From Shigella phage SSG23, in sequence record PQ351811: 64,000 bases of DNA; one strand, written 5' to 3'. Under the pieces are notes generated by a model. It had not been told where the DNA came from. It saw only the letters and a program-made list of their open reading frames with translations, and did no database searches. Shown in pieces: positions 26,479-40,916 of this stretch. The translations under genes and the position numbers were made by a program. The stretch's first letter is position 1. Every line of letters begins with the position of its first letter.

Positions 26479-27033
26479 TTACACATCAGCCTTTTCCATT
26501 TCTCGAATGAATGCGTTAATAAATTGTTTAATTTGTGTAGGATCTATGATCTTGATCTTGCGTCGTTCCTCGTTGCGGAGGATCGCATCTTCCAGTGTGT
26601 CTACCGCCGACAGTGCACCATGAAACTGCAAATGACGGTGATGAATATCCCCTTTGTCATACCAATTGCTTGAGCCTTTCGGATACTCGGTAAGATTCCA
26701 ATACTTGTTTCCGTCAATATCAACGTGGTATAATACTTGATTTCCTCCTACATTTGCATATCGTTGTTCGGCTGATTCATATGCTGTCTCTTGATCGGTG
26801 ATCCAGTCATGAAACGGATCGTATACGTCATTAAGCATCAGCAAGATCCAATAAAGTTGCTGGTTTCCGTATACTTCATATGCAACTTGTTCCGGTCGTG
26901 GACTACCTTGAATGTAATATGTTTGTATGTTATAATCAGAAATTATTGCGTTGAAATATGCGCGGTAATTGCGCACAATGTCAGTAATCATCTTGCCGTT
27001 GTATTCTATGGCAGGGAAGAAAGAAAAGAGCAT
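26479..27033 (-). CDS. gp53: baseplate wedge protein gp53
   Basis: 184 aa (T4 gp53 196 aa) immediately upstream of gp5. Confidence 0.6.
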   Translation of the reverse strand: MLFSFFPAIEYNGKMITDIVRNYRAYFNAIISDYNIQTYYIQGSPRPEQVAYEVYGNQQLYWILLMLNDVYDPFHDWITDQETAYESAEQRYANVGGNQVLYHVDIDGNKYWNLTEYPKGSSNWYDKGDIHHRHLQFHGALSAVDTLEDAILRNEERRKIKIIDPTQIKQFINAFIREMEKADV

Positions 27034-27065
27034 TTTAGCACCCTCAATTGATAAATAGTATTATG

Positions 27066-27073
27066 TATTTATA
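27066..27073 (-). promoter_or_regulatory. T4-type late promoter core TATAAATA upstream of gp53
   Basis: Plus TATTTATA = minus TATAAATA about 33 nt upstream of gp53 ATG, inside an 8-bp inverted repeat AGCACCCT...AGGGTGCT. Confidence 0.5.
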
Positions 27074-27088
27074 ATAAAGGGTGCTAAA

Positions 27089-27562
27089 ATGGGAGGATCT
27101 AACACTTATAAGGGCAAGTATGTTCCTGAGAATAAGGAAAAGTATAAAGGGGATATACGGAAAATCACATACCGTTCAAGTTGGGAAAGATGGATCATGC
27201 AGTGGCTAGACCGCAATCCTAGAGTTGCGAAATGGGGATCTGAGACCGTAGTAATTCCTTATGAGTCATCAACAGACGGAAAAAGACACAGATACTTTAT
27301 GGATTTTTACGTTAAGTTTGATGATGGCAAGGAGCATTTATGGGAAGTTAAACCAGCTAAAGAGACAAGGCCACCGGAAAAGCCAAAAAGAATGACCGCG
27401 AAGACAAAGCAACGGTATATGCATGAAGTATGGACGTACACAAAAAATACCGAAAAATGGTTAGCTGCCGTGAAATTATGCCAAAAGCATAACATGGAGT
27501 TTAAGATCATAACCGAACATGCATTAAAGAAAGTATTTGGCTTTAAAGGGCTTAACAAATAG
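27089..27562 (+). CDS. gp4: head completion protein gp4
   Basis: 157 aa (T4 gp4 150 aa); adjacent to gp2 as in T4. Confidence 0.65.
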   Translation: MGGSNTYKGKYVPENKEKYKGDIRKITYRSSWERWIMQWLDRNPRVAKWGSETVVIPYESSTDGKRHRYFMDFYVKFDDGKEHLWEVKPAKETRPPEKPKRMTAKTKQRYMHEVWTYTKNTEKWLAAVKLCQKHNMEFKIITEHALKKVFGFKGLNK

Positions 27563-27573
27563 AGGATAATATT

Positions 27574-28395
27574 ATGAGCGTATTTGAAATAATCACAGAA
27601 GACGAAAAGCCGTCTCCCCAAAAACGAAAGTCTAAACAGTGGGTCGAATTGGGTGTAGAATTTGCAAAAGCAAAAGCCAAAGGCATGACAGCTAAAGCAT
27701 TTGCAGATTCTAAGGGAATAGCCTATGCGACTTTCACTAAAAGTATGTCTCGTTATGCCAGCGAAATTAAAACAGCAATAGAAGTTGAAAAACTAAAAGG
27801 GAAAGGTGCAAAGGGTCTCAATAAGCAGCAACGCGCAATGATGATGATTAATGATTTTCGTGCGTCTATGCGTGCTGTATCAAAGAGTCGTCCTAAAGAA
27901 AAATCACAGGAATGGTTTACTAAAACAATAAAAGCGGGAATAAAGGGACACCAGATTGTAAAACCGCAAGTAGGGCGAATCTATACTTTTATGTATGATG
28001 CGAAGTATAAAGACACTTTGCCATATTGGGATGTTTTCCCGCTGATCATTTGTCTGGGTGATTCTAAGACAAAGGCGGGTAATACTGTAATGTTGGGTCT
28101 TAACTTACACTATGTAACGCCTAAAGCCCGTCAGCAGTTTCTGGAAGCACTTTTAAAGCAATATGCATCTACTCCTACCTTGAGCAATAAAACACGCTTG
28201 AAGATTAAATGGAGCGATGTAAAAGGTATGCGTGGTAGTGATCACATGATCAAAGCATACTTACCGGGACACATTAAAACAAAACTTGTGGAGATTAGCC
28301 CGAAAGACTGGAGCAATATTATCTATATGCCAACATATCAGTTTATGTCAAAAGGCAAGAAATACGACGCAAGGAAAGTTTGGAAGGATGCATAA
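27574..28395 (+). CDS. gp2: DNA end protector protein gp2
   Basis: 273 aa (T4 gp2 274 aa), basic protein, position next to gp4. Confidence 0.7.
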   Translation: MSVFEIITEDEKPSPQKRKSKQWVELGVEFAKAKAKGMTAKAFADSKGIAYATFTKSMSRYASEIKTAIEVEKLKGKGAKGLNKQQRAMMMINDFRASMRAVSKSRPKEKSQEWFTKTIKAGIKGHQIVKPQVGRIYTFMYDAKYKDTLPYWDVFPLIICLGDSKTKAGNTVMLGLNLHYVTPKARQQFLEALLKQYASTPTLSNKTRLKIKWSDVKGMRGSDHMIKAYLPGHIKTKLVEISPKDWSNIIYMPTYQFMSKGKKYDARKVWKDA

Positions 28396-28399
28396 GATT

Positions 28400-28427
28400 A
28401 AGCCCGTCGTTGACGGGCTTTTTTATT
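28400..28427 (+). terminator. rho-independent terminator after gp2
   Basis: Hairpin AAGCCCGTCGTTGACGGGCTT followed by TTTTTATTAT. Confidence 0.7.
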
Positions 28428-28680
28428 ATAGATCGATAGCATGAGCATAACCATGTAAGAAGTCTTTTAATTCTTCCTTATTGGTAACACGCTGTAAAAT
28501 CTCTAATGCCTTGTCGCGATCACGTAATGCACCTGAAAGGGATTTTATTTGATCATCCCTTTCTGCAATCTGCTTAAGCAGATCTGTATTGCATTTAGAC
28601 AAATAGAGAACTTCACCCCGCAATGTTGCTAATTCGTTATCCAAACGATCATAGAGTTTTAACAAAATGTCTTCTGTCAT
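28426..28680 (-). CDS. hypothetical coiled-coil protein
   Basis: 84 aa minus-strand ORF between gp2 and gp3; helical heptad-like sequence. Confidence 0.45.
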   Translation of the reverse strand: MTEDILLKLYDRLDNELATLRGEVLYLSKCNTDLLKQIAERDDQIKSLSGALRDRDKALEILQRVTNKEELKDFLHGYAHAIDL

Positions 28681-28869
28681 AAGAAGTCCTCGTATAGTAC
28701 CCGTTTTATTTATTACTGTATAAAAATATAGTTATTGGTTAAAACATAACCAAAACGAAGAAAGATCTTTAGAATAATAAAAATTTGTTTCGGTTAAAAA
28801 GTAGTCAGTGCCTCCGGCACGTCGCAAAGCGACAATTGTTAATAAATATTTTCATTTGAGGAATCGAAA

Positions 28870-29460
28870 ATGTCCAATCTCTTTAATTATGCTAACCCTA
28901 GCAACTGGCAGATTGCCATTCCAGATGGTCAACTAACAAAAGGCTTTACTTTAAATGCTCAAGGTGTTACACTTCCGGCTATAACCATTCCACCGACTAA
29001 ACAAGTTGCTGGTCAATATGGTTTGGCGGTCGCTGATTATCCTTCCAGTCATGTAGAGTTTGACCCGTTGGTAGTCCGGTTTATTGTCGATGAGCATTTG
29101 GAAAGCTATCTAAATCTTTACACATGGATGCTTTCTATAGTAGACTACAATAACGGTAACTCCACCGCGTGGAAGGATTCAATGCCGGAAGCCGTTCAAG
29201 TTCACATGATGGACAATGAACGCCGTAACATTGTATGCACCTTTAACTTTTATGGTTGTTGGTGTTCACAATTGGGGGAACTTGAGTTAACATACACCGA
29301 TGATATGCATGAATCTCTGGTGTGTACTGCAATTCTTCCATTTAAAACAATGAGCATTGAACGTGATGGTCAACTGATCGTTCCTCGCCCAGCAATTCAG
29401 GCGGCGGATCGTCAGCGAGTGGAAGGAATTAAAGCTATGCACCCTGCTTTTAGAAAGTAA
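28870..29460 (+). CDS. gp3: tail tube terminator / tail completion protein gp3-like
   Basis: 196 aa (T4 gp3 176 aa) between gp2 and gp1 as in T4 order 1-3-2-4. Confidence 0.55.
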   Translation: MSNLFNYANPSNWQIAIPDGQLTKGFTLNAQGVTLPAITIPPTKQVAGQYGLAVADYPSSHVEFDPLVVRFIVDEHLESYLNLYTWMLSIVDYNNGNSTAWKDSMPEAVQVHMMDNERRNIVCTFNFYGCWCSQLGELELTYTDDMHESLVCTAILPFKTMSIERDGQLIVPRPAIQAADRQRVEGIKAMHPAFRK

Positions 29461-29475
29461 CAAGAGGCTTATATT

Positions 29476-30132
29476 ATGAAATTGATTGCACTTTGTGGTA
29501 AAAAACGCGTAGGAAAAGACACTGCCGCGTTAATCATTGATGGACACAGTTATCAACTGGCAGCACCGATCAAAGAAATCTTATGCGAATGTCAACCAGA
29601 CTTAGGTCTGACTTATCTTGACTTTGACGGGTTGGGGCGTGACAGAGAAGCCGATCTAGGTATTGATACCTACACCGCGCACAAGTGGTTTATTCAGTGT
29701 CTTCTTATGCTAGATTCGAAGTATGGCGGTAGCTCTTTTACTTGTGATCGTCTGGCTGAGATTTACAAGGTCGTTAATGAGATCGGAGAAAAACATAATA
29801 ACGTCTGGTCTATTCGTCTCATGTTAACCACTCTCGGTACTGACATAATGGTTAACTTGATTAATCCGCTTTATTGGTGTAATCTCTTCGTGAATGAGTT
29901 TATGAAGCGCAAAAATGAAGAAGGGTATTTTGTAGTAGTTGATGTGCGTCAGCCTATTGAAATTGCTCTCATGCGTACTATGGGTGCTAAGGTGTTGCAT
30001 ATTCAGCGTGATACTGGTATTGTATCGACTCACTCCACCGAAAAAGGAATTTTGCCTATTGACGGTGAAACCATTATCATAAATAATGGTACATTAGAAG
30101 AATTTGAAAGCGCGATTCTCGCGAACCTTTAA
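29476..30132 (+). CDS. gp1: deoxynucleoside monophosphate kinase gp1
   Basis: 218 aa; N-terminus MKLIALCGKKRVGKDT matches T4 gp1 MKLIFLSGVKRSGKDT (P-loop). Confidence 0.85.
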   Translation: MKLIALCGKKRVGKDTAALIIDGHSYQLAAPIKEILCECQPDLGLTYLDFDGLGRDREADLGIDTYTAHKWFIQCLLMLDSKYGGSSFTCDRLAEIYKVVNEIGEKHNNVWSIRLMLTTLGTDIMVNLINPLYWCNLFVNEFMKRKNEEGYFVVVDVRQPIEIALMRTMGAKVLHIQRDTGIVSTHSTEKGILPIDGETIIINNGTLEEFESAILANL

Positions 30133-30164
30133 TAAAAAGTTATCAACAAGTAGGAGATGTGAAT

Positions 30165-30425
30165 ATGTCCAATCAGCATGAACAAATGATTAATGTCCTG
30201 AAAGTACGTCTGTTTGACACTCAAGAAAAAGCCGCATTCTTAGAAGGCCAACTGAAAGATCGTGAGCGTGTCTTGATGGAACTGGTACGCATTCTGGGTA
30301 TTCAGCCAGACGAAAACGGCACTGTTTCCCTTGATGCTATTGTCGAAGAAGTAAAAGCACTTCTCCCTAAAGACGAAGCAGCGGAAGACGATAAAGAGGA
30401 AGTAGAACTGATCACGGAGGCTTGA
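30165..30425 (+). CDS. 57A: tail fiber assembly chaperone gp57A-like
   Basis: 86 aa coiled-coil acidic protein directly after gp1 (T4 57A is 79 aa); ATG start chosen after TAGGAG RBS. Confidence 0.5.
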   Translation: MSNQHEQMINVLKVRLFDTQEKAAFLEGQLKDRERVLMELVRILGIQPDENGTVSLDAIVEEVKALLPKDEAAEDDKEEVELITEA

Positions 30426-30427
30426 TT

Positions 30428-30892
30428 ATGACCCCGTTTCGAGAATCCGTTAAAGGTACATATGCGGCGGTTAAATTCACTGAGGATACACTAGACCGCA
30501 TTGAAAAATTGCAGGAGTTCTACAATCTGCCTAATGCCGTTCCTCGTGATAAACTTCATAGTACGATCTTATATTCTCGTGTTTATGTTCCGTTTATCCC
30601 AGAAGATGGTGAAAAGTTTTTAGGCTCTCTATGCCATCTGAAAGTGTTTGAAACTCAATCCGGTACTAATGCACTTGTGCTGGCATTTGAAAGCGACTAC
30701 ATGCAATTCAGACACGATATCGGCACTGCTTTAGGTGCGACGTGGGATTATCCTGAATATGTACCGCATATCACGCTTTCTTATGATGTTGGTGCGCGTA
30801 AATTTGGCACTGACCTAGAGTTCGATTTAGAGATTGTCCGATCTCATGAATATGTCGAAGATCTAGACCTGGAGTGGACGACCAAACTGTAA
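30428..30892 (+). CDS. acb1: 2H phosphoesterase, 57B/Acb1-like (anti-CBASS cyclic-nucleotide phosphodiesterase)
   Basis: 154 aa; two H-x-T/S-x motifs (HSTIL, HITLS) typical of 2H/LigT fold; same position as T4 57B. Confidence 0.6.
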   Translation: MTPFRESVKGTYAAVKFTEDTLDRIEKLQEFYNLPNAVPRDKLHSTILYSRVYVPFIPEDGEKFLGSLCHLKVFETQSGTNALVLAFESDYMQFRHDIGTALGATWDYPEYVPHITLSYDVGARKFGTDLEFDLEIVRSHEYVEDLDLEWTTKL

Positions 30893-30899
30893 TTCTATA

Positions 30900-30930
30900 C
30901 CCCGAAATTTTTTCGGGGTTTTTTGTTTTT
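30900..30930 (+). terminator. rho-independent terminator
   Basis: Hairpin CCCCGAAATTTTTTCGGGG followed by TTTTTTGTTTTT. Confidence 0.75.
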
Positions 30931-30935
30931 ATGTG

Positions 30936-30964
30936 TTGACAACCATAAACGACTATAGCATAAT
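30936..30964 (+). promoter_or_regulatory. early promoter cassette P1 (TTGACA-N17-CATAAT + conserved leader)
   Basis: GTGTTGACA...TATAGCATAAT, then CACATCGAAACGAAACAC and AGGAGAATCAAAAAAATG. Confidence 0.65.
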
Positions 30965-31004
30965 GCACACATCGAAACGAAACACACTTAGGAGAATCAA
31001 AAAA

Positions 31005-31382
31005 ATGATGATGATGTTTAAAGATAAATTCGAATGTCACTATACCCGTAACTTTGACTTAGTATCCCGCTACTACATTCATAAAGAAACTGGCACGCAA
31101 GTAGTTCTTGAATCTCACAGCGAAGTCGGATTCGATTCAACGAAAGTAGCAATTAGTGCTCGCTTCTGGGATAACGGAAAATTTGCTTATATTGCCTGGA
31201 ACGACGACGAAAATGTAATTACAGTAGCTTTCGGTGATGACTACTACACTAAAAAGACTTTTGATAGCAAGCCATCAAATGAATACCTGAAAGCGTATGT
31301 TCAGCACATGTTCCAACGTGTTCTGACCGGAATGGAAATCAATGTCATGAAAGACATTGTAGACGAAGTAAAATATTCTTAA
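31005..31382 (+). CDS. hypothetical protein
   Basis: ORF-track ORF 30933-31382 trimmed to first ATG after the RBS of the promoter leader. Confidence 0.55.
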   Translation: MMMMFKDKFECHYTRNFDLVSRYYIHKETGTQVVLESHSEVGFDSTKVAISARFWDNGKFAYIAWNDDENVITVAFGDDYYTKKTFDSKPSNEYLKAYVQHMFQRVLTGMEINVMKDIVDEVKYS

Positions 31383-31388
31383 AAACAG

Positions 31389-31417
31389 TTGACAACATGA
31401 AACGGGGGTAGTAAGAT
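31389..31417 (+). promoter_or_regulatory. early promoter cassette P2 with palindromic spacer
   Basis: TTGACA, 17 bp spacer, TAAGAT; inverted repeat GGGGGTA/TACCCCC spans the -10. Confidence 0.6.
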
Positions 31418-31448
31418 ACCCCCACAAACAAACGAAAGGAGAATCAAA

Positions 31449-31607
31449 ATGAAATTTATCGGTAAAACTTTTATGTTCGTAGCTGGTACTCTGTTTACTG
31501 CAACTCTGATAGCTGGTGGGTTGGATATCTTTACTGCCTTTGAAACTTTCGGGTATACTGTAGCGTCGGGTGCTCTCTTCGGATTAGGTTTAGCGATTAG
31601 CAAATAA
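31449..31607 (+). CDS. small hydrophobic membrane protein (52 aa)
   Basis: Short ORF (below ORF-track cutoff) after GGAGAATCAAAATG; MKFIGKTFMFVAGTLFTATLIAGG... Confidence 0.45.
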   Translation: MKFIGKTFMFVAGTLFTATLIAGGLDIFTAFETFGYTVASGALFGLGLAISK

Positions 31608-31616
31608 GGTGATAAT

Positions 31617-31811
31617 ATGGAATTGGATATGGTTAACGCAAAATTTATGGGTAAAGATAAGAAAGGTACAACATTTGTTATTAACAAAACATTGCTTCGC
31701 TCTGACCTTAAGTGGGTAACACAACAATTTGCGGAAGTCAATGAGGCTGTAGTGACCTGCTTTGTCGGTGATAAGAAAGTTTTTGAAATTGACCGTCGTG
31801 GGGGTGTCTAA
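31617..31811 (+). CDS. hypothetical protein
   Basis: 64 aa ORF with RBS, tightly packed. Confidence 0.45.
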   Translation: MELDMVNAKFMGKDKKGTTFVINKTLLRSDLKWVTQQFAEVNEAVVTCFVGDKKVFEIDRRGGV

Positions 31812-32008
31812 TGATCACTAAACTGTTTAGCAATACTTTGTTTCTGATTGCATTTGTTTTCTTTCTGTGTCTGATCATCGGTGTGATTGCAGTCGGTAGT
31901 TATTCCGGTATTACACTAGATGATTTTTGTACATTGGTTTTCTTCTCAAGTGTTCCTACACTCCTGATCGCTGTATGTGGTGCTTTTAGATGGATCTGTG
32001 ATCTATGA
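31811..32008 (+). CDS. small membrane protein
   Basis: 65 aa, two hydrophobic segments; start overlaps previous stop. Confidence 0.5.
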   Translation: MITKLFSNTLFLIAFVFFLCLIIGVIAVGSYSGITLDDFCTLVFFSSVPTLLIAVCGAFRWICDL

Positions 32009-32111
32009 CTGAACAGGAACGAATGATGTTGATAGGTGGACCGGAGTTCACTAAATTTGATGCAATTCTTATTGCGTTGGGGTTTCTTATGATCTGTTGT
32101 ATGGTGGCGCT

Positions 32112-32333
32112 ATGAGTAGCATAAAATATTTTGCTTTCTTGTGTTTTATGATGTTCTTTACATTCTTAGCATGTGTATTCTTTACATGGCTTGCTCATGT
32201 TGATAATGCAACCGGACCGTTTTACTTCTTTTGTGTGCTGTCGGTGTTGACTGGTGCTCTTGTTACGTGGATGATTCGAGATTGTTACGGAATGTATAAG
32301 TTTGAAAAGACTCGACCGAAATGGGGCAAATGA
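32112..32333 (+). CDS. small membrane protein
   Basis: ORF 32097-32333 trimmed to ATG after GGTGG; hydrophobic. Confidence 0.45.
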   Translation: MSSIKYFAFLCFMMFFTFLACVFFTWLAHVDNATGPFYFFCVLSVLTGALVTWMIRDCYGMYKFEKTRPKWGK

Positions 32334-32515
32334 TGAAACTATTTGCGTGGCTAATTATTTTAAATGTAATTATTAAGACTGTTCTCGCTGGTTTACTGAT
32401 GATACATAGCACGGAACCAGAAGAAGCATTAACGTATTGTGTTGCTTATGTGTTGGGATTCTTGCTTACTGCGTGGATGTGTGATGAATATCGAAGAATT
32501 GAGGTAAAACCATGA
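32330..32515 (+). CDS. small membrane protein
   Basis: ORF 32321-32515 trimmed; hydrophobic; overlaps neighbours by 4 nt. Confidence 0.45.
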   Translation: MMKLFAWLIILNVIIKTVLAGLLMIHSTEPEEALTYCVAYVLGFLLTAWMCDEYRRIEVKP

Positions 32516-32730
32516 AGATGACTTTTTATATCTTAGCAAGTATCATGCTTGTGATCTCTTCTGCACTATTTGCATTTCTTACCGTTTGGGGGATCTGCAC
32601 TGATGCGAAGCCGTGGGATATCGTAGAAAACACTGTTATGTTTATTATCAGTCTCATGTGTCTGTTTGATGCATTTAACTCTATCAAAGAAGAAGATCAA
32701 AAACGTCGCGAAAGAAAGCTATATAAATAA
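32512..32730 (+). CDS. small membrane protein
   Basis: 72 aa, two hydrophobic helices, charged C-terminus. Confidence 0.5.
   Translation: MKMTFYILASIMLVISSALFAFLTVWGICTDAKPWDIVENTVMFIISLMCLFDAFNSIKEEDQKRRERKLYK
32722..32729 (+). promoter_or_regulatory. candidate late promoter core TATAAATA (plus strand)
   Basis: Exact TATAAATA at end of preceding ORF, upstream of ORF-free structured region; could be chance in AT-rich DNA. Confidence 0.3.
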
Positions 32731-32735
32731 TAGTG

Positions 32736-32907
32736 AACTAAAACAGCGCGGTTAGAATGATTTGGACGTCACCTAGCCGCATTTATTGCAGCGTATGGGG
32801 TTAATCCGGTACGCTAAAGCATTCACTTGCTAGGCCGCTAGCAGGTTGGAGACAAGGAAGATTCGCTACCTTCCCTATAAGCCACTCTTCGGAGTGGCTT
32901 TTTTATT
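32736..32907 (+). ncRNA. candidate structured non-coding RNA / long 3'-UTR
   Basis: About 170 nt with no plausible ORF; several local hairpins (GCGTA/TACGC, TGCTAG/CTAGCA, GGAAG/CTTCC) ending in the terminator. Confidence 0.25.
32879..32907 (+). terminator. rho-independent terminator
   Basis: Hairpin AAGCCACTCTTCGGAGTGGCTT followed by TTTTTATT. Confidence 0.75.
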
Positions 32908-32932
32908 GCCTAAAATTTTTTAAAAAAAGTTG

Positions 32933-32961
32933 TTGACACCAAATCGTGCCTATAGCATAAT
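32933..32961 (+). promoter_or_regulatory. early promoter cassette P3
   Basis: GTTGTTGACA, 17 bp spacer, CATAAT, then CACCCATCGAAACGAAACAC leader and GGAGAATCAAATTATG. Confidence 0.65.
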
Positions 32962-33007
32962 ACACCCATCGAAACGAAACACACTTTCTTAAACGGAGAA
33001 TCAAATT

Positions 33008-33193
33008 ATGGCACGTCGCATCACTAAAGCACTGAAAGCAGTAAGCAAAGAAAACGTAGTAGCTATTCTGGTAATCTGGGGTTATAACGAAGAATCCGCT
33101 AAACAGAAAGTTGAAGCGGGGTTTGAACTGGCAGTAAAAGCAATGCCGAATGATGACTCTGTAGGGCTGGCAAATTATATCGCATATTTCTGA
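33008..33193 (+). CDS. hypothetical protein
   Basis: 61 aa ORF immediately after promoter-leader cassette. Confidence 0.55.
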   Translation: MARRITKALKAVSKENVVAILVIWGYNEESAKQKVEAGFELAVKAMPNDDSVGLANYIAYF

Positions 33194-33201
33194 TAAAAGT
33201 G

Positions 33202-33231
33202 TTGACAGGGGGAGGATAACTCCCCTACAAT
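33202..33231 (+). promoter_or_regulatory. early promoter cassette P4 with palindromic spacer
   Basis: TTGACA, GGGGGAGGATAACTCCCC palindrome, TACAAT, then CATCAACGAAACGGGAGAATCAAAATG. Confidence 0.6.
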
Positions 33232-33260
33232 ACAACCATCAACGAAACGGGAGAATCAAA

Positions 33261-33482
33261 ATGATCAACTTTAAAGAAGCAGCGAAAGAAATTATCGACT
33301 TTGAGCGCGAATTGTTTGAAATGGAACCAAATATGAGCAAACTGGAACTGGCTAACCAGATCTGGTACTCTAAAATGAATCCATCTGATCGCCTAGAAGT
33401 TATGAACATTGTAGGCGAAGTGAAAGGTAGTGCACTAATGAAACTCCGCGCTTGCCACGCTTACATCGCTGATCAACTGTAA
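33261..33482 (+). CDS. hypothetical protein
   Basis: 73 aa ORF after promoter cassette. Confidence 0.55.
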   Translation: MINFKEAAKEIIDFERELFEMEPNMSKLELANQIWYSKMNPSDRLEVMNIVGEVKGSALMKLRACHAYIADQL

Positions 33483-33493
33483 GAGGGTATATT

Positions 33494-33682
33494 ATGGGGG
33501 AGAAACCATTAGTACAACTAAGAGTACGCTATAACCAGATTTTAGCATTACTTAAGGCTGAGGGTGTAGATCCATCGGACCGCGAGGCTGTAAAAGCGTG
33601 TCTATCTGATACGGTACAACCAAAACAAAACTATGCTTGTTATATGTACTTTCAAAATCGATTGAATAACGTTAAGTGTTGA
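33494..33682 (+). CDS. hypothetical protein
   Basis: 62 aa ORF with RBS. Confidence 0.5.
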   Translation: MGEKPLVQLRVRYNQILALLKAEGVDPSDREAVKACLSDTVQPKQNYACYMYFQNRLNNVKC

Positions 33683-33691
33683 GGTGATACT

Positions 33692-33880
33692 ATGGAAGAC
33701 AAAATTGAACAATTACGCGAATCCGCTAAAGAGCATGGTATGAGCGAAGAGTTTGTAGAATGGTTTATTTCTAAAAAGGCTGATTCCTGCGGGTGCTTTA
33801 ACTTCATTACTATGTCCATTATGTGGGAAGGTTGGAAAGGTGCAGTAGAAACTGCTCTAGAAATTATGAAAAAAGACTAA
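33692..33880 (+). CDS. hypothetical protein
   Basis: 62 aa ORF with RBS. Confidence 0.5.
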   Translation: MEDKIEQLRESAKEHGMSEEFVEWFISKKADSCGCFNFITMSIMWEGWKGAVETALEIMKKD

Positions 33881-33888
33881 AAAAGTTG

Positions 33889-33917
33889 TTGACAATGGGT
33901 CGGGTGTATAGCATAAT
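33889..33917 (+). promoter_or_regulatory. early promoter cassette P5
   Basis: GTTGTTGACA, 17 bp spacer, CATAAT inside GGGTGTAT/ATACACCC inverted repeat, then CATCGAAACGAAACAC leader. Confidence 0.65.
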
Positions 33918-33959
33918 ACACCCATCGAAACGAAACACGAACTACTAAGGAGTATCAAA

Positions 33960-34286
33960 ATGAAACCAGTATCTGTTAAAGTTATCTTCTCTGAATCTTC
34001 TGTATTCGCTAACGCAAACGAAGTATTCCACTTCGAAGACTTCGAGCGTAAAGCACTGGACGCGGCAGCAAAAGCCTATGAAAGCGAATATGACAAAACT
34101 CAAATCGAGGTTACATTCGAAGACGGCACTACTTACGCTTGCCGCCTTGACCTGGGTGATCGTCTGTCTGGCTTCCGTCACCATGTAGAGAAGACAATCG
34201 CTTTCTCTAAAACCGAAAAAGGAAAACACTACTTTTCTGTATTCGGTACTGAAAATCTGGATTTCTTGAAAACGGTTTCTTTCTAA
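33960..34286 (+). CDS. hypothetical protein
   Basis: 108 aa ORF after promoter cassette. Confidence 0.55.
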   Translation: MKPVSVKVIFSESSVFANANEVFHFEDFERKALDAAAKAYESEYDKTQIEVTFEDGTTYACRLDLGDRLSGFRHHVEKTIAFSKTEKGKHYFSVFGTENLDFLKTVSF

Positions 34287-34294
34287 GGTATATT

Positions 34295-34477
34295 ATGAAA
34301 AAGATTAATTGGTTAGCGAACATAGGCGCGGTATGCGCCTTTAACATCCTCGGATGGATAATGTTACATTTTGATGATCGCGTTTCAAAATGTGAAGGTG
34401 GATTGATTCTAGGATCTGCTAGTGTTTTCATTATGCTGTATGCAATTATAGTTGACTTAAACCGCGAGGATTGTTAA
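34295..34477 (+). CDS. small membrane protein
   Basis: 60 aa, hydrophobic. Confidence 0.5.
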   Translation: MKKINWLANIGAVCAFNILGWIMLHFDDRVSKCEGGLILGSASVFIMLYAIIVDLNREDC

Positions 34478-34478
34478 T

Positions 34479-34679
34479 ATGAAAATTAATAATAGTGCCA
34501 TCAGATTTTCGAGCGTATATGCTAGTTTCATTGCGCTGGTCTGTATGTTTGTTTTTATTCCTGTTGTACTTCTTGGATATTGTGATATTGAAGTAGCATT
34601 GATTGCTGGGATCTATATGTGGGTTGCGGTCTTTGTTCTTTCAATTGTAATGTGCAAGATTATTGACTATACTGATTAA
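34479..34679 (+). CDS. small membrane protein
   Basis: 66 aa, two hydrophobic helices. Confidence 0.5.
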   Translation: MKINNSAIRFSSVYASFIALVCMFVFIPVVLLGYCDIEVALIAGIYMWVAVFVLSIVMCKIIDYTD

Positions 34680-34697
34680 CTGTGTGAGGATTATATT

Positions 34698-35018
34698 ATG
34701 AGCAAACTGTTTGAAACTCCGCGCGAAATTCTGATTGATAAACTGAAAGAGCGTGGTTTTAAGATCAAAGATGCAACCAAATACAGCAGAATTGATGAAA
34801 TTAAGTTGCATTCTCTTGATGAACTGGTAGAATATGTTGCGGCAGTGGCTGATCCGCAGTTTGATGTTATTGTAGGTGACGTTGAATATCTCGATAATGT
34901 ATATTCATTCTTCACTTATGGTAAAATTGTGTCTGTGAAAATTTCATTCTGTGAAAATGTGGAGGTACTTGCTAGTGAACCAGAAGAACCAACTAACAAC
35001 GGTCCTACGGCAGCGTAA
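34698..35018 (+). CDS. hypothetical protein
   Basis: 106 aa, after TGTGAGGATTATATTATG translation-initiation motif. Confidence 0.5.
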   Translation: MSKLFETPREILIDKLKERGFKIKDATKYSRIDEIKLHSLDELVEYVAAVADPQFDVIVGDVEYLDNVYSFFTYGKIVSVKISFCENVEVLASEPEEPTNNGPTAA

Positions 35019-35289
35019 CAAGGAAGACCGCCTGATTTATGCGCTGGCTGTTATCCTAGAAAAAGAATTACCGGATCTTGAGGTAGTCTTTACTGACAGA
35101 CCAGTAGGCCAACGTTACGGCGGATATGATAGCCTAGTTTATCCTTCATATAGCCTTGAAATGTGGGTAGAAGATTTTAAAAACCTGGCTGATACATCTA
35201 AACCGCTTTATCTATGGGATGTTGAGTATAATTGCGATCCTAACTGGCCTGGTATTAATGTTTATGCGTCTATGACTTTGAAGGTGTGA
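34951..35289 (+). CDS. hypothetical protein (start uncertain; may begin at GTG near 34975)
   Basis: 112 aa ORF overlapping previous gene; GGAGG RBS upstream of an in-frame GTG. Confidence 0.4.
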   Translation: MKMWRYLLVNQKNQLTTVLRQRNKEDRLIYALAVILEKELPDLEVVFTDRPVGQRYGGYDSLVYPSYSLEMWVEDFKNLADTSKPLYLWDVEYNCDPNWPGINVYASMTLKV

Positions 35290-35291
35290 TA

Positions 35292-35450
35292 ATGATTGAA
35301 CAAATGTTAACTGCAACGGTAATGGCTTTCTGTATGGTTGTTGTTATGATTGCAATGATCCCTAAAGAGAGAATGAGTCTTCTTGTCGCTGTCTGTGTGG
35401 GTGTTGTTTGCGGATGGTTTGGAATCGCTTTAGAACAAGCTCTGCGTTGA
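35292..35450 (+). CDS. small membrane protein (52 aa)
   Basis: Short hydrophobic ORF below track cutoff, starts 2 nt after previous stop. Confidence 0.4.
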   Translation: MIEQMLTATVMAFCMVVVMIAMIPKERMSLLVAVCVGVVCGWFGIALEQALR

Positions 35451-35511
35451 TTAACAAAGCGGGTAGGGGAATGTACTACCCGCACTAAATTAGCTAACTG
35501 GAGGGCTTTCT

Positions 35512-35700
35512 ATGGCGTTTTATCTATGGTTGATTATAGTATGCTTTGTGCTGGGGTTGTGCTTCTATACTGGCGTATTCTGTTTGATTGGCTGGATAAA
35601 CGGAGGATTCTCTAGTATCATTTTGCTTGCCGGATCAATCGCCTCGTTTCTGTTGATATGGCTTTTTTCTTATTTGTTTGGTGAATGGGATTTATTATGA
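35512..35700 (+). CDS. small membrane protein
   Basis: 62 aa, two TM-like helices. Confidence 0.5.
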   Translation: MAFYLWLIIVCFVLGLCFYTGVFCLIGWINGGFSSIILLAGSIASFLLIWLFSYLFGEWDLL

Positions 35701-35876
35701 ACAAATATATGTTTTGGGCGATCCTTGCCTATGTTGTGATTGCGGTAGTCTGGGGACTCTGTGTTATTGTCGCTTCCCTGATCTGGTGGGAATCACTTGG
35801 CGTGGGTTGCTTGATTAGTGGTGCATCCTCTCTTATTATGGGTGTGATTGTTGGGTTTCTTGTGTCGGGGGATTGA
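35685..35876 (+). CDS. small membrane protein
   Basis: 63 aa, hydrophobic, overlapping neighbours. Confidence 0.5.
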   Translation: MGFIMNKYMFWAILAYVVIAVVWGLCVIVASLIWWESLGVGCLISGASSLIMGVIVGFLVSGD

Positions 35877-36094
35877 CAATGGTTTTCTTCGGTCTTATTA
35901 TAATGGTGCTTAATGTCATTTGTGGCGTTGCTATGTTAGCTATGGCCTTTACTGTTCCTATGTCTGTTGATAGCGCCGCATCCGTAGGCGTGTTGGGAAT
36001 TGTAAACCTGTTTACCGCCCTAGCATGTTGGATCACCGGACGAGATGAGGTAATGTATTACTTTTATAAACGTAAACAGAGAAAAGGAAAATAA
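35873..36094 (+). CDS. small membrane protein
   Basis: 73 aa, hydrophobic, basic C-terminus. Confidence 0.5.
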   Translation: MTMVFFGLIIMVLNVICGVAMLAMAFTVPMSVDSAASVGVLGIVNLFTALACWITGRDEVMYYFYKRKQRKGK

Positions 36095-36095
36095 T

Positions 36096-36287
36096 ATGAG
36101 ATTTGCATTTGGTTTTACCGTGATGTTGATTATTGCTCTGAGTATGTGTACCGGAATGCTTGTATTTGGTCTTGCAAACGGATTTAGCATTTATAATGAT
36201 CCGTGGGTTGATTGGGGGATGGTTGCTGTTAATGCGATCCTGATTGGTGCTAATACAAGAACTCTATGCAGGATCACAGGAATCTAA
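36096..36287 (+). CDS. small membrane protein (holin candidate by position)
   Basis: 63 aa hydrophobic protein directly upstream of the endolysin gene. Confidence 0.4.
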   Translation: MRFAFGFTVMLIIALSMCTGMLVFGLANGFSIYNDPWVDWGMVAVNAILIGANTRTLCRITGI

Positions 36288-36315
36288 ATATTATCACTCA
36301 CAAAGGGGGTGAATA

Positions 36316-36705
36316 ATGTTTAAATTATCTAAAAGAAGCAAAGATCGGCTTGTTGGCGTACATCCAGACCTGGTAAAAGTCGTTCATCGTGCATTAGAAC
36401 TGACTCCGGTCGATTTTGGTATTACGGAAGGTGTGCGTAGTCTAGAAACGCAAAAGAAATATGTTGCGGAAGGTAAATCTAAGACTATGAAATCTCGTCA
36501 TCTTCACGGTTTCGCGGTTGACGTTGTAGCGTATCCTAAAGATAAGGATACATGGAACATGAAATATTACCGCATGATCGCTGATGCATTTAAACAAGCT
36601 GGTCGAGAATTGGGTGTTCCTGTTGAATGGGGTGGAGATTGGACCAGTTTCAAAGATGGTCCTCATCTACAATTGCCACACAGCAAATACCCAGATCCAA
36701 AATAA
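36316..36705 (+). CDS. endolysin, peptidase M15 (L-alanyl-D-glutamate peptidase / VanY-like)
   Basis: 129 aa; SRHLHGFAVDV and DGPHLQL motifs typical of zinc D,D/L,D-peptidase M15 fold; no signal peptide. Confidence 0.75.
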   Translation: MFKLSKRSKDRLVGVHPDLVKVVHRALELTPVDFGITEGVRSLETQKKYVAEGKSKTMKSRHLHGFAVDVVAYPKDKDTWNMKYYRMIADAFKQAGRELGVPVEWGGDWTSFKDGPHLQLPHSKYPDPK

Positions 36706-36767
36706 AATATTAACCATCAACGGGGAGACAATCTAAGGATCTCTCCCCGTTCACTGGAGACTTTACC

Positions 36768-37253
36768 ATGAATATTGATGTAAAATTAGAAAGTAAAGAT
36801 TTGATTTATGCTGCGTGTGTATCTGCCGTAAATGGCATCATAGAACGCCGTAAGCGACGCAATTTTGCTGATGACCTAGATTCCATAGTCTCAATCAATT
36901 TAGGCCGTCAGACAGGGCATACAGACGCTACAATCAAGTTATATGACCATTATACGCGAAAAGGCTATAGTGTCTTTATCGTTTCAACGACGCGGGAACA
37001 TGCCAAAACGATCCGAGATCGCGGTCGCGGTGAAAATGTCAACATTTCAAATGTAGATTGCACGTCGATCCGAACTTTCCTGAATCCGATCACTTGGCGA
37101 GGTCGTAGTCTTGACAAAACAATTTTTATCCTAGATACTACCATGCGCGGATTTACTGACAGCGTATTGCAGTTTTTAGAGTTAAATCGACTTAGTGTTG
37201 GGATGGGTAATGTAGAAGACCAACCTATTTTCATTGGCTTAGGTATCAACTAA
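36768..37253 (+). CDS. hypothetical protein
   Basis: 161 aa ORF with GGAG RBS. Confidence 0.5.
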   Translation: MNIDVKLESKDLIYAACVSAVNGIIERRKRRNFADDLDSIVSINLGRQTGHTDATIKLYDHYTRKGYSVFIVSTTREHAKTIRDRGRGENVNISNVDCTSIRTFLNPITWRGRSLDKTIFILDTTMRGFTDSVLQFLELNRLSVGMGNVEDQPIFIGLGIN

Positions 37254-37378
37254 TGAAAAATAAAGATAGCGTAGCTCGTCGATTCCGTGCTACAATCAAT
37301 AAGAATCGTAAAGTCCAACCTGATAAACTCTATGGGGTTTTGGTTGGAAAAGTTAATGACGAACGTCCTGATCTATAA
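37253..37378 (+). CDS. possible small basic protein (41 aa)
   Basis: Short ORF in the gap before GrcA, start overlapping previous stop (TAATG); unsupported otherwise. Confidence 0.25.
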   Translation: MKNKDSVARRFRATINKNRKVQPDKLYGVLVGKVNDERPDL

Positions 37379-37390
37379 AAGAGGTGAATT

Positions 37391-37807
37391 ATGGAATTTA
37401 AAGCAATTCAAATCATGAAAGGTGAGCATAAAGGTACTATTATTGGTGGACACTTCGCGCCTATGATTCTGGTATCCGAACCGAAAGCACTGATCGGCGC
37501 TAAAGTAATTGTTAGTAAAACTTTCGCAGAAGACCATGTGATCACCGCAGAAGACGTCGATTCGCTGGAACTGCACACAACTAGCTTCCGTCCTGTTGTT
37601 GTAGATAATGGTGCTCCGGTTGTCGAAGGTGGTCAACACCTAAATGTTAACGTATTGTTACGAGAAATGTTGCTGGACGCGGTTGAACATCCTGAGAAGT
37701 ACCCGCAGCTTACAATTCGCGTTTCTGGTTACGCAGTGCGCTTCAATAGTCTGACTCCAGACCAGCAGCGTGACGTGATCGCGCGTACCTTTACCGAATC
37801 TCTCTAA
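37391..37807 (+). CDS. grcA: autonomous glycyl radical cofactor GrcA (YfiD-like)
   Basis: 138 aa; C-terminal [12 protein letters not shown]...[35 protein letters not shown], glycyl-radical motif RVSGY; as I recall it, near-identical to E. coli GrcA. Confidence 0.9.
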
Positions 37808-37817
37808 TTTTTCATCA

Positions 37818-37849
37818 AGCCAATCCGAAAAGGGTTGGCTTTTTCTTTA
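37818..37849 (+). terminator. rho-independent terminator
   Basis: Hairpin AAGCCAATCCGAAAAGGGTTGGCTT followed by TTTTCTTTAT. Confidence 0.75.
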
Positions 37850-37893
37850 TAGTGTGATACGATGCAATCTCTTAATCAACTGAGGGTTTAATT

Positions 37894-38592
37894 ATGCATA
37901 CAATGGTTAAAATGGTCTTTGGATCTCACTTATACGGCCTTGATACTGAAAATTCCGATAAAGATTATCGTGGTATCTTTGTTCCAACTGCGAAAGAAAT
38001 TATCTTAGGATCGATGAAAGAACACTATGACCAAAGCACTAGCGGTCAAGGTATCAAGAACACCAAAGACGATATTGATGTTAATATGTTCAGTCTAAAA
38101 AGGTTTATCAACCTGGCATGTAAAGGTGATATTGGCGCTATTGACATTGTGCACGCGCCTAGTAACATGTTGATTGAATCCTCCAGAGAATGGGAATACA
38201 TCCGAACACATCGCGATAAATTCTATCATGTTGGTATGTGGGGTTGTTCTGGCTATCTCAAAAAGCAGGTAGCCAAATCTGAAAAGTATTTCAGTAACTG
38301 GAAAGATCTTTCTCATGCTCTGCGTGTTGGTTATCAGCTACTTGAAATCTATCAGACAGGTGATCTACAATTCCCACTCGCTCGACGTTCTTCTATTTTA
38401 GCGTGTAAGTTAGGAGAAAGAACCTTTGATAATGTGCGGGAAGAATTGAAAGATCTCTACGAACGTGTTAAACTCGCGCGTGAAGAGGCAAAGAAAAACG
38501 GGATGCCAGAAGAACCAGATGTTGACTTTTGGAAAGATTTATTAGAATATATTCATCTGACCGTTGTTCTTGAACACTATACCCGTGGTTAG
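37894..38592 (+). CDS. pol-beta superfamily nucleotidyltransferase-like protein
   Basis: 232 aa; N-terminal GSHLYGLDTENSDKD fits the GS-x(9-13)-D-x-D nucleotidyltransferase signature. Confidence 0.55.
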   Translation: MHTMVKMVFGSHLYGLDTENSDKDYRGIFVPTAKEIILGSMKEHYDQSTSGQGIKNTKDDIDVNMFSLKRFINLACKGDIGAIDIVHAPSNMLIESSREWEYIRTHRDKFYHVGMWGCSGYLKKQVAKSEKYFSNWKDLSHALRVGYQLLEIYQTGDLQFPLARRSSILACKLGERTFDNVREELKDLYERVKLAREEAKKNGMPEEPDVDFWKDLLEYIHLTVVLEHYTRG

Positions 38593-38613
38593 TTAATATA
38601 GGAGATTAATAAA

Positions 38614-38808
38614 ATGCAAGTTTATACCAATAGCAATAAAGGACAAGATATTACGCCCGGAAAGATGTATGATTTTACCCCGGCACGAGACGACGAAAAT
38701 CCACCGACAATCGGTTACATCAAAGATGATATAGGTTATCGTATTACGATACTTCTTGATGGTGGATGTTCTCATCTTCGCGGTGATAAATGGGAGTTAG
38801 TACCATGA
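38614..38808 (+). CDS. hypothetical protein, YGYIKDD paralog 1
   Basis: 64 aa; shares TPxKxYxFTP...GYIKDD...CSHL motif with next two ORFs. Confidence 0.5.
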   Translation: MQVYTNSNKGQDITPGKMYDFTPARDDENPPTIGYIKDDIGYRITILLDGGCSHLRGDKWELVP

Positions 38809-39050
38809 TGTATGTTATGACACCTTATAGTAGTAGATCTTACATCACCCCAAATAAACTGTATAAGTTTACGCCAGATGAAAGAATGTCTACCTACGGT
38901 TACATCAAAGATGATAAAGGATACGAACTTTTTATTTCTCTGAAAAGTTGTGCATACCTTGATGACCGTCCGTGGACACTGATCGAAAAACCAAAACAAC
39001 CTGAGAATAAAGGTCTTTGGAATGTGCTAAAAAAATTCTTGAAAAAGTAG
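38805..39050 (+). CDS. hypothetical protein, YGYIKDD paralog 2
   Basis: ORF 38790-39050 trimmed to ATG overlapping previous stop (ATGA). Confidence 0.5.
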   Translation: MMYVMTPYSSRSYITPNKLYKFTPDERMSTYGYIKDDKGYELFISLKSCAYLDDRPWTLIEKPKQPENKGLWNVLKKFLKK

Positions 39051-39079
39051 TTGACAGCATGAAACGGGGGTAGTAATAT
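39051..39079 (+). promoter_or_regulatory. early promoter cassette P6 with palindromic spacer
   Basis: TTGACA, spacer with GGGGGTA/TACCCCC palindrome, TAATAT, then CATCGAAACAACAACGGAGTATTAAAATG. Confidence 0.6.
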
Positions 39080-39110
39080 ACCCCCATCGAAACAACAACG
39101 GAGTATTAAA

Positions 39111-39449
39111 ATGAGTGTTAAAGAAGTGTTTGTTTATACCGACTATGACGGGTGCGCCTATATCACCGCCGGAAAACTTTACCGATGTGAAATTATTCAT
39201 GGTACATTAGGTCGAATTATGTGCGATCCGGTTACAAAATTGTGGAAAAGCAATCCTAGTGAGCGAGAAACTCTTATTAACCTAGATCCAGACGGTTGTT
39301 CACATTTGGACTATAGAAAATGGCATATCGTGACACATGATGCTTATGGTATTCATCTTGCTACTAAAGAATTAACTATAGAGAAATTCAAGTTTAAAGA
39401 AATCCCGTTTGTATACTGGCTTCGCAATTTGTTCAAGAAAGGAGAATAA
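39111..39449 (+). CDS. hypothetical protein, YGYIKDD paralog 3
   Basis: 112 aa; AGKLYRCE...DPDGCSHLDYRKWHIV resembles the preceding two ORFs. Confidence 0.5.
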   Translation: MSVKEVFVYTDYDGCAYITAGKLYRCEIIHGTLGRIMCDPVTKLWKSNPSERETLINLDPDGCSHLDYRKWHIVTHDAYGIHLATKELTIEKFKFKEIPFVYWLRNLFKKGE

Positions 39450-39450
39450 A

Positions 39451-39873
39451 ATGGAAACAATTAATGTACATGTTCGTCGTAGCAAGCTGCGTCGATTCTT
39501 CGAAACTGAAATGCGCAAAACTAATGCACAGATCAAAGAAAAGTGCTTGAATGATGGTTACGGTGAGTATATTTTCATTCGCTTTAGTCCGCATATGATC
39601 GACCGTCTAACCGATCGTCATATCGATGAACATAAGACAATGGAACTATTCAATAAGGTAGAAACTCGTTTACCTGAGATCTTCAAGTTCTTGAAAATGG
39701 AAGACCGACCTAACCGACTAGAAATCACTGACGGTAACATGTGGATCGGGATGACAGTAGATCTAATCGAAGACGGTAAACCGTATTACGGGCTATGCTG
39801 CCGAATGATTATAGAGAATCCAAAGCGACTGGCGGGTAAAATGTCGGCGGTTGTTTTGAAAGTGGACCAATAA
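39451..39873 (+). CDS. hypothetical protein
   Basis: ORF 39409-39873 trimmed to ATG after AAGGAGAATAAA RBS. Confidence 0.5.
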   Translation: METINVHVRRSKLRRFFETEMRKTNAQIKEKCLNDGYGEYIFIRFSPHMIDRLTDRHIDEHKTMELFNKVETRLPEIFKFLKMEDRPNRLEITDGNMWIGMTVDLIEDGKPYYGLCCRMIIENPKRLAGKMSAVVLKVDQ

Positions 39874-39895
39874 TGGAAATTGGTTAAATTAATGC

Positions 39896-39923
39896 TTGAC
39901 TTTCTGGTGATAGGGCTATATTA
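39896..39923 (+). promoter_or_regulatory. possible promoter (TGCTTGACT ... TATATT)
   Basis: TTGACT with a 15-16 bp spacer to TATATT upstream of the secreted SLT-like gene; spacing suboptimal. Confidence 0.35.
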
Positions 39924-39958
39924 TGGAATCAGAAAGTTAAGCCAAACAGGAGAAATTG

Positions 39959-40549
39959 ATGTTAAAAGTTCTAAAAGCGATAGTATTGAGTCTGTCACTA
40001 GCCGTTGGTGCTACACACGCATCGACTAGCGCACCGATCAAAAAAGCGCCGATAGACAACTTTACAGCACACCAACTAGATAATTTACATTTCGCCTATC
40101 AATACGGTGAGCAATTCGAGAAAAGCGGTAAGTTGAAAAATGACCATCCGAATATTCGCTATAACGGAAAGGGTTTAGGTCACATCCTGGCGGGTATCGC
40201 ATGGCAAGAATCAAGCGCGGGTGCAAACTTAGCACCAAAGAAAAATCATCATGCTTATGGATTATTTCAAAATTACCTTAAAACGGTGAAAGCGAAAAAT
40301 GCAAAGCGCGGTGTTAAAATGAGTGATCGCCAGACTATCAACTTTATCATGAATCGCGAGGTTTCTGCATTCTACGCGATGGATGAGTTAGCATACTGGC
40401 TGGATGTTCGAAACGGTAATATTCGACTCGCGCTAGCTTCTTACAATGCAGGATGGAACTATAAAGCCGGGTTAGGTTATGCTGATGACGTACTAAAAAA
40501 GGCTAACCATCTAAAGAGTAAAGGCATTCTTAAAACTAAACGCTATTGA
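39959..40549 (+). CDS. secreted lytic transglycosylase-like protein (SLT domain)
   Basis: N-terminal signal peptide (LSLAVGATHA); AWQESS...GLFQ resembles the SLT catalytic ES...GLMQ motif. Confidence 0.55.
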   Translation: MLKVLKAIVLSLSLAVGATHASTSAPIKKAPIDNFTAHQLDNLHFAYQYGEQFEKSGKLKNDHPNIRYNGKGLGHILAGIAWQESSAGANLAPKKNHHAYGLFQNYLKTVKAKNAKRGVKMSDRQTINFIMNREVSAFYAMDELAYWLDVRNGNIRLALASYNAGWNYKAGLGYADDVLKKANHLKSKGILKTKRY

Positions 40550-40556
40550 GGAATCT

Positions 40557-40916
40557 ATGAAAAAGTTGACAGTAATTGCTATGATTGCTATGATGCTCTC
40601 GGCTGGTGCGCTTGCTAGTAATGAGCGCCCTTATCCAAAGTTCGAATACAAAGGGTTTGAGATCAACAAAAAGATCATTAAAACCTTCTGTGATAATGAT
40701 AACATGTGTAGCGATTTTATCGCACTTGAACTTGACGAAGCGTACAAACAAGGTCGAGACGAAAAACGAAAAAATCGAGCGTGGGATCTAAGTATTGCCA
40801 GCTTTGCTAAAACAAAACGTAACTTGTGTGATACTGCCCCGGATAAGCAATTGTGTTTTGCATATCGTGACACACTGTTAAGCCGTTTTATGGCTGGGTT
40901 GTCTTCCCGTGACTAA
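40557..40916 (+). CDS. secreted hypothetical protein
   Basis: 119 aa with N-terminal signal peptide (MKKLTVIAMIAMMLSAGALA), Cys-containing. Confidence 0.5.
   Translation: MKKLTVIAMIAMMLSAGALASNERPYPKFEYKGFEINKKIIKTFCDNDNMCSDFIALELDEAYKQGRDEKRKNRAWDLSIASFAKTKRNLCDTAPDKQLCFAYRDTLLSRFMAGLSSRD

Follow-up and report, generated by a model that had tools for sequence, protein, structure and literature searches.

The window analyzed here, i.e., the whole 64,000-nucleotide stretch of DNA from Shigella phage SSG23 (PQ351811), carries on its plus strand an open reading frame which starts with ATG at position 30428, stops with TAA at 30890-30892 and encodes a product of 154 amino acids, exactly as it had been delimited in the preliminary description. 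On the basis of the reading frame itself, the match to the Pfam family PF23474, the crystal structures 7T26/7T27 and the identity with T4 57B, this coding sequence (30428..30892, stop codon included) was assigned as acb1, the orthologue of T4 gene 57B. Upstream of acb1 three genes of the same strand were identified, namely gp3 (28870-29460, assigned by Pfam and PHROGs), gene 1 (29476..30132), whose product gp1 is the dNMP kinase (Pfam DNMK, E=9e-68), and, directly 5' of acb1, the gene for the tail-fibre chaperone gp57A (30165..30425), which is annotated 57A in Phi1, matches PHROG 1002 with E=5e-26 and reaches 27.3 bits (E=3e-6) against a cut-off of 27 for the Pfam family GP57. The earlier statement that the reading frame follows gp1 and a gp57A-like ORF is supported by these profile matches, and the proposed placement in the T4 57B slot likewise holds, as the order gp3-gp1-57A-57B was found to be kept, on one and the same strand, in T4, in Phi1 and in five more distant Straboviridae (ZZ1, AS4, 6E35-1b, leN and Earwig).

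Over positions 28800-31500 the window has the same sequence as Shigella phage SFHK24 (PQ351812; 100% identity), which is a Krischvirus of the RB49/Phi1 type, and Phi1, Ec_Makalu and further Krischvirus phages match this part at about 97%. On the codon level, acb1 differs from the Phi1 57B gene by eight synonymous and two conservative non-synonymous exchanges (N33D and D60E), a pattern which is consistent with purifying selection on acb1. In the region 5' of gp3, an insertion/deletion polymorphism was identified: Phi1 possesses an extra reading frame of 1032 bp, ORF130.1 (65-1096 of the locus piece), which overlaps the gp2 3' end and is located ahead of the minus-strand ORF130, and this reading frame is absent from the window (28396-28870), which here is of the SFHK24 type. 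The polymorphic site adjoins a terminator-like stem-loop at 28400-28420. The window counterpart of ORF130 itself (28426-28680, minus strand) is a lone reading frame of 84 amino acids, located between the plus-strand genes gp2 and gp3, whose only Pfam similarity, to DUF7615, is sub-threshold. In the gp4 position (27089-27562, plus strand), a product of 157 amino acids is encoded which is annotated as 'head closure protein' in SFHK24 and was found to match PF08722, the TnsA-like endonuclease N-terminal domain, with E=4e-21.

Predicted expression signals and the downstream variable region

Translation of acb1 is predicted to start at ATG 30428, which is preceded by a Shine-Dalgarno motif, read from the sequence (GGAGG, 30416..30420, plus strand), that resides within the 3' end of 57A and lies 7 nt 5' of the start codon. 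A TTG at 30422 would be an alternative start, adding two residues to the protein, but the ATG was favoured because of the 7 nt spacing of the GGAGG motif and because it is also the annotated start in Phi1 and SFHK24. As the 57A stop codon (TGA, 30423-30425) is separated from the acb1 ATG by a gap of 2 nt, translational coupling of the two genes is likely.

The transcription signals at the acb1 locus were taken exclusively from consensus scans. Within the 3' end of gene 1 a candidate sigma-70-like promoter was identified (TTGACG-17-AATAAT, 30059..30087, plus strand), a weak site with agreement at 10 of 12 positions, which could drive a 57A-acb1 transcript. On the other side of the gene, the terminator scan revealed a stem-loop (ACCCCGAAA/TTTCGGGGT) with T-run (30899..30925, plus strand), which resembles an intrinsic terminator and begins 7 nt 3' of the acb1 stop codon; acb1 is probably co-transcribed with 57A, whereby the transcript would end at this predicted terminator. 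Next to it, a near-consensus sigma-70 promoter was found (TTGACA-17-CATAAT, 11 of 12 positions; 30936..30964, plus strand), which is assigned to the next gene. Stem-loop and promoter (30899-30964) together match a cassette of the PeSL ('promoter-early stem-loop') type, a mobile regulatory element which Arbiol et al. 2010 (PMC2839356) reported from RB49 and Phi1, and with it the variable region would start. Further near-consensus plus-strand promoters (TTGACA-17-nATAAT) were identified at 31389, 32933, 33202, 33889, 35873, 37111, 38141, 39051 and 40566, and over this range (31389-40594) the TTGACA promoters precede small downstream ORFans, a series which likewise agrees with the PeSL pattern. 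The T4 late-promoter motif TATAAATA is absent from the plus strand of positions 27000-32000, which leaves the acb1 block with no assigned late promoter. The tRNA scan of the window returned no tRNA genes.

As a consequence of this arrangement, acb1 is the last gene of the conserved block and borders on a hyperplastic region, a core/variable junction which is consistent with the clustering of counter-defence genes at such boundaries. The first gene after acb1 (31005-31382, plus strand; Phi1 ORF125) encodes 125 amino acids that match PHROG 15253, a family of unknown function, with E=1.8e-87, and whose only Pfam similarity, to T4 Gp30.7 (E=0.004), stays below the threshold; judged from its position, this gene is a candidate for a further counter-defence gene. 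About 700 bp downstream of acb1 the window encodes a Dmd homologue of 64 amino acids (31617-31811, plus strand; PF17587, E=1.5e-14), so that two counter-defence genes are clustered at the locus. Dmd is an antitoxin directed against the RnlA and LsoA toxins.

Homology to Acb1 and conservation of the active site

The encoded protein matches the Pfam family PF23474 (Anti-CBASS protein Acb1) with E=1.5e-51 and 174.4 bits at a gathering cut-off of 27, whereby residues 9-152 are aligned with profile positions 1-143 of 144. When all chain sequences of the PDB were searched with phmmer, Acb1 of Erwinia phage FBB1 was the sole match (E=1.2e-43), with residues 10-153 of the query aligning to residues 2-143 of the chain at 54% identity and with no gaps over residues 10-111; for this enzyme, an apo structure (7T26) and a structure in complex with 3'3'-cGAMP (7T27) were reported (PMC9117128). 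With T4 57B, as encoded in a T4 genome record, the identity amounts to 48% over the full length. The alignment to Acb1 that had been proposed as a check was thus obtained with T4, with FBB1 and with the family profile, and the earlier statement that T4 57B is the protein described as Acb1 is correct, as the T4 protein was identified as such through activity-guided fractionation (Hobbs et al. 2022, PMC9117128). In NCBIfam, no model was found to match the protein. Single-sequence AlphaFold2 gave a mean pLDDT of 41.4 and a pTM of 0.37, values too low for a usable model; the 2H fold is predicted from the 54% sequence identity to a crystal structure solved at 1.1 A.

The preliminary description had started from two motifs, HSTIL and HITLS, which it regarded as hallmark of the 2H phosphoesterase fold. 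Both motifs are present (residues 44-48 and 114-118), and among the five histidines of the protein these two are the ones found in an H-x-[TS] context, but such a pair is within what chance would produce: at least two HxT/S motifs were counted in 13.4% of shuffled sequences with the composition of the protein, and 10 of 76 window ORFs with a length of at least 100 amino acids contain them as well. As a consequence, the motif pair is weak evidence by itself and was rejected as a stand-alone proof, whereas the full-length homology is decisive for the predicted Acb1 identity. As to their placement, both motifs were found by alignment to fall on the HxT/HxT tetrad known from the crystal structure: the first, H44-S45-T46 (30557..30565, plus strand), corresponds to H44/T46 and the second, H114-I115-T116 (30767..30775, plus strand), to H113/T115 of T4 Acb1, the catalytic role of these residues being taken from PMC9117128.

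In T4 Acb1, the tetrad H44/T46/H113/T115 serves acid-base catalysis, the residues Y12, W74, F107 and W147 stack on the nucleobases, E141 touches adenine N6, which explains why the enzyme needs adenosine, and residues 145-152 form the lid (PMC9117128). According to the alignment, all Acb1 residues to which a role was assigned by Hobbs et al. 2022 are either kept or conservatively replaced in the SSG23 protein. The catalytic tetrad corresponds to H44, T46, H114 and T116, the adenine-contacting E141 to E144, and the base-stacking residues to Y12, F74 (W74 in T4), Y108 (F107 in T4) and W150 (W147 in T4), the latter being located in the lid, while FBB1 Acb1 likewise possesses F and Y at the two exchanged positions. 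The C-terminal segment which comprises E144 and the lid residue W150 (residues 144-154) is encoded at 30857..30889 (plus strand), as derived from the alignment with the roles given in PMC9117128. In an alignment of eight homologues, namely the window protein and those of T4, FBB1, Acinetobacter phage ZZ1, Aeromonas phage AS4, Vibrio phage 6E35-1b, Cronobacter phage leN and Klebsiella phage Earwig, the residues Y12, H44, T46, H114, T116 and E144 are the same in every sequence, at identities reaching down to 31%.

Two members of this alignment deserve separate mention. The Acb1 homologues of leN and Earwig, both of the Pseudotevenvirus type, comprise 207 amino acids (1959-2582 of each locus piece), of which about 55 form a charged extension at the C-terminus, and their lid Trp is replaced by Lys; judged from these features, they may represent a variant whose lid differs or which has gained a function.

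Acb1 homologues were identified in 1473 of 50,697 phage records. Their identity to the SSG23 protein is at least 95% in 57 records, which are of the Krischvirus type, 80-90% in a single record and below 60% in the other 1415, and by this measure the Krischvirus Acb1 proteins form a distinct, tight subclade. A different architecture was found in Pseudomonas phage psageK9 (NC_074661.1), where a fusion protein of 600 amino acids (552-2354 of the locus piece) combines a portal domain (PF06381, residues 38-385, E=5e-89) with Acb1 at its C-terminus (PF23474, residues 457-598, E=1.9e-43). In this Acb1 domain Y12, the Glu that reads adenine and the two HxT motifs are retained, whereas the lid Trp is missing. 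With a query composed of the C-terminal part of the portal, the linker and the Acb1 domain, matches covering at least 80% of its length were obtained in at least 31 phage records, from phages of Pseudomonas syringae, Rhizobium, Sinorhizobium and Synechococcus; for the majority of those listed, the annotation is portal or head protein. The fusion to a portal protein suggests that this form of Acb1 is carried in the virion. Among the papers searched, one, on a megaphage, names Acb1, 'portal protein' and 'fusion' together.

Predicted function and alternative assignments

Homology in terms of family membership, conservation of residues, synteny and purifying selection are observed for the gene at 30428-30892. 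With high confidence, it was assigned as an intact and genuine acb1, encoding the Krischvirus orthologue of T4 gp57B, for which cleavage of CBASS signals is predicted by homology. The enzyme is probably active and would linearize cyclic di- and trinucleotide signals that contain adenine. From the earlier designation as anti-CBASS nuclease, the identity as Acb1 stands, while the notion of a general nuclease was abandoned, as the family is one of metal-independent cyclic-oligonucleotide phosphodiesterases. For T4 Acb1, cleavage of 3'3'-cGAMP, cAAA and related signals on the 3' side of adenosine, with no need for metal, was demonstrated (PMC9117128).

A reaction sequence can be suggested by homology with T4 and FBB1 Acb1 (PMC9117128), and catalysis, substrate range, expression timing and in vivo role of the SSG23 enzyme are to be read as predictions. 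It is assumed that the CBASS cyclase (CD-NTase) of the infected host would make 3'3'-cGAMP, cUA, cAAA, cAAG or a similar signal, which would be captured in the U-shaped Acb1 pocket with Y12, F74, Y108 and W150 stacking on its bases. Next, the C-terminal lid would shut over the ligand, with E144 reading adenine N6, and the bound cyclic nucleotide would become distorted, by which the adenosine 2'-OH would be placed to attack the adjacent 3'-5' phosphodiester. The attack on the 3'-5' bond would be catalyzed in a metal-free manner by the tetrad H44/T46 and H114/T116, and ring opening would proceed via a 2',3'-cyclic phosphate intermediate, finally yielding a linear product with a 3'-phosphate. The CBASS effector would hence stay inactive and abortive infection would be avoided.

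A different function is implied by existing annotation. The identical protein of SFHK24 (PQ351812 CDS0037) is named 'RNA ligase', which is the label of PHROG 755, a family matched by the SSG23 protein with E=7.9e-55; the same label is found in many RefSeq phage records, and one record reads RNA 2',3'-cyclic phosphodiesterase. Taken literally, the protein would be a 2H enzyme of the LigT type that acts on RNA ends (2'-5' RNA ligase or RNA 2',3'-cyclic phosphodiesterase) and functions in RNA or tRNA repair. Enzymes of this type (PF13563, PF02834) share with the SSG23 protein two HxT/S motifs and a distant similarity around the second of them, weak Pfam matches were obtained with 2_5_RNA_ligase2 (E=0.0011) and LigT_PEase (E=0.075), and the chemistry is related, as the Acb1 reaction passes via a 2',3'-cyclic phosphate (PMC9117128), a species also involved in LigT-type chemistry. 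However, both LigT-type scores remain below the gathering cut-offs (19.4 vs 27 for PF13563, 13.7 vs 23.3 for PF02834), while that for Acb1 is 174, and the label of PHROG 755 is an inherited and outdated family name, the family including T4 57B, which experimentally is Acb1 (PMC9117128). LigT-type enzymes have RNA ends rather than cyclic oligonucleotides as substrate and are devoid of the Acb1 lid and base-stacking residues, whereas the cyclic-oligonucleotide-binding residues Y12, E144 and the lid W150 are conserved in the SSG23 protein. Housekeeping RNA repair is further argued against by the closest characterized homologue, as T4 delta-acb1 grows normally without CBASS, while its plating efficiency on CBASS hosts is reduced more than 300-fold (PMC9117128). 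The assignment as RNA ligase or LigT-type enzyme was therefore rejected as extremely improbable.

It may also be considered that the protein belongs to the Acb1 family and that its main target in vivo is a pathway other than CBASS, such as type III CRISPR with its signal cA3 or another cyclic-oligonucleotide pathway, or that its specificity is shifted. In vitro, cA3 is a substrate of Acb1, and Panoptes systems, which guard cA3 pools, sense the enzyme in the BASEL T-even phages Bas35-37; the Krischvirus clade stands well apart from the remaining homologues, with the identity gap given above, and differs from T4 Acb1 by the exchanges W74F and F107Y and an insertion of two residues at 131-132. 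Yet FBB1 Acb1, which was crystallized with 3'3'-cGAMP, contains the same F and Y variants, the catalytic tetrad and the adenine-reading Glu are unaltered in the SSG23 protein, and each of nine further Acb1 homologues assayed by Hobbs et al. cleaved both 3'3'-cGAMP and cAAA (PMC9117128), so that a principal target outside of CBASS or a shifted specificity is regarded as very improbable. For the preferred assignment as CBASS-directed Acb1, the extent of the substrate range has to be considered as well. As the identity to the assayed Acb1 enzymes amounts to only 47-54%, the range may differ from theirs; it might, e.g., include cGG or 3'2'-cGAMP, both of which are spared by T4 Acb1, or might be narrowed to avoid guards of the Panoptes type. 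Since the ligand-contact residues are conserved, a substrate range of Krischvirus Acb1 that differs from that of T4 Acb1 is nevertheless considered unlikely.

Krischvirus is a genus considered for phage therapy. An intact acb1 predicts the SSG23 phage to resist CBASS systems which use adenine-containing cyclic di- or trinucleotides, and at the same time predicts vulnerability to Panoptes-type guards that sense the depletion of such nucleotides; for the BASEL T-even phages, an intact acb1 is what renders them sensitive to Panoptes guard systems. The finding itself is already known: the literature has covered family, structure, mechanism and prevalence of Acb1 among T4-like phages since 2022, GenBank contains the identical protein, the 57B label of Phi1 dates from 2007, and for a T4-like phage the presence of the gene is ordinary. 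The sole practical consequence concerns annotation. Many other phage records carry the entry 'hypothetical protein', and one among the records listed reads 'anti-CBASS protein Acb1', which is the correct label for the gene instead of 'hypothetical protein' or 'RNA ligase'; the latter is misleading for the SFHK24 gene.

Comparison with known Acb1 enzymes

Among the 12 best-ranked of 917 papers matching on RB49, Krischvirus or Phi1, none mentions Acb1, and neither enzyme data nor genetic data for the SSG23 protein or any Krischvirus Acb1 were found; the 57 phages whose lysates were screened by Hobbs et al. (PMC9117128) included one of the RB49 type, vB_EcoM-G2494. The counterpart in a sister phage, gp57B of the Krischvirus phages Phi1/RB49 (ABR24636.1), is 99% identical, with N33D and D60E as the only exchanges and with an identical gene order, and its 2007 annotation, which precedes the discovery of Acb1, reads 'conserved hypothetical protein'. 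The poxvirus cGAMP phosphodiesterases, as far as they are represented in PMC12064943 (citing Hobbs et al., Cell 2024), act in a eukaryotic host and carry their lid at the N-terminus, while that of Acb1 is C-terminal. FBB1 Acb1, which provides the structural reference for both 2H fold and active site, agrees with the SSG23 protein in the F74 and Y108 variants and differs from it by two additional residues in the 128-133 loop of the latter and by the genus of its host.

T4 Acb1 (NP_049750.1), the founding member of the family, resembles the SSG23 protein in length (152 as compared to 154 amino acids), in its HxT/HxT tetrad, Y12, the adenine-reading Glu and the lid Trp, and its gene occupies the same slot behind gp3-gp1-57A with other counter-defence genes adjoining. 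Next to the two exchanged base-stacking residues and the two residues inserted at 131-132, the SSG23 protein is distinguished from it by one additional residue near position 81. The regions downstream of acb1 differ: in T4, ipI and a tRNA cluster, the latter about 1.4 kb downstream of 57B, are found, whereas the window harbors ORFans and dmd and is free of tRNA genes. The pairing of acb1 with dmd in SSG23 nonetheless parallels the situation in T4, where acb1 abuts ipI.
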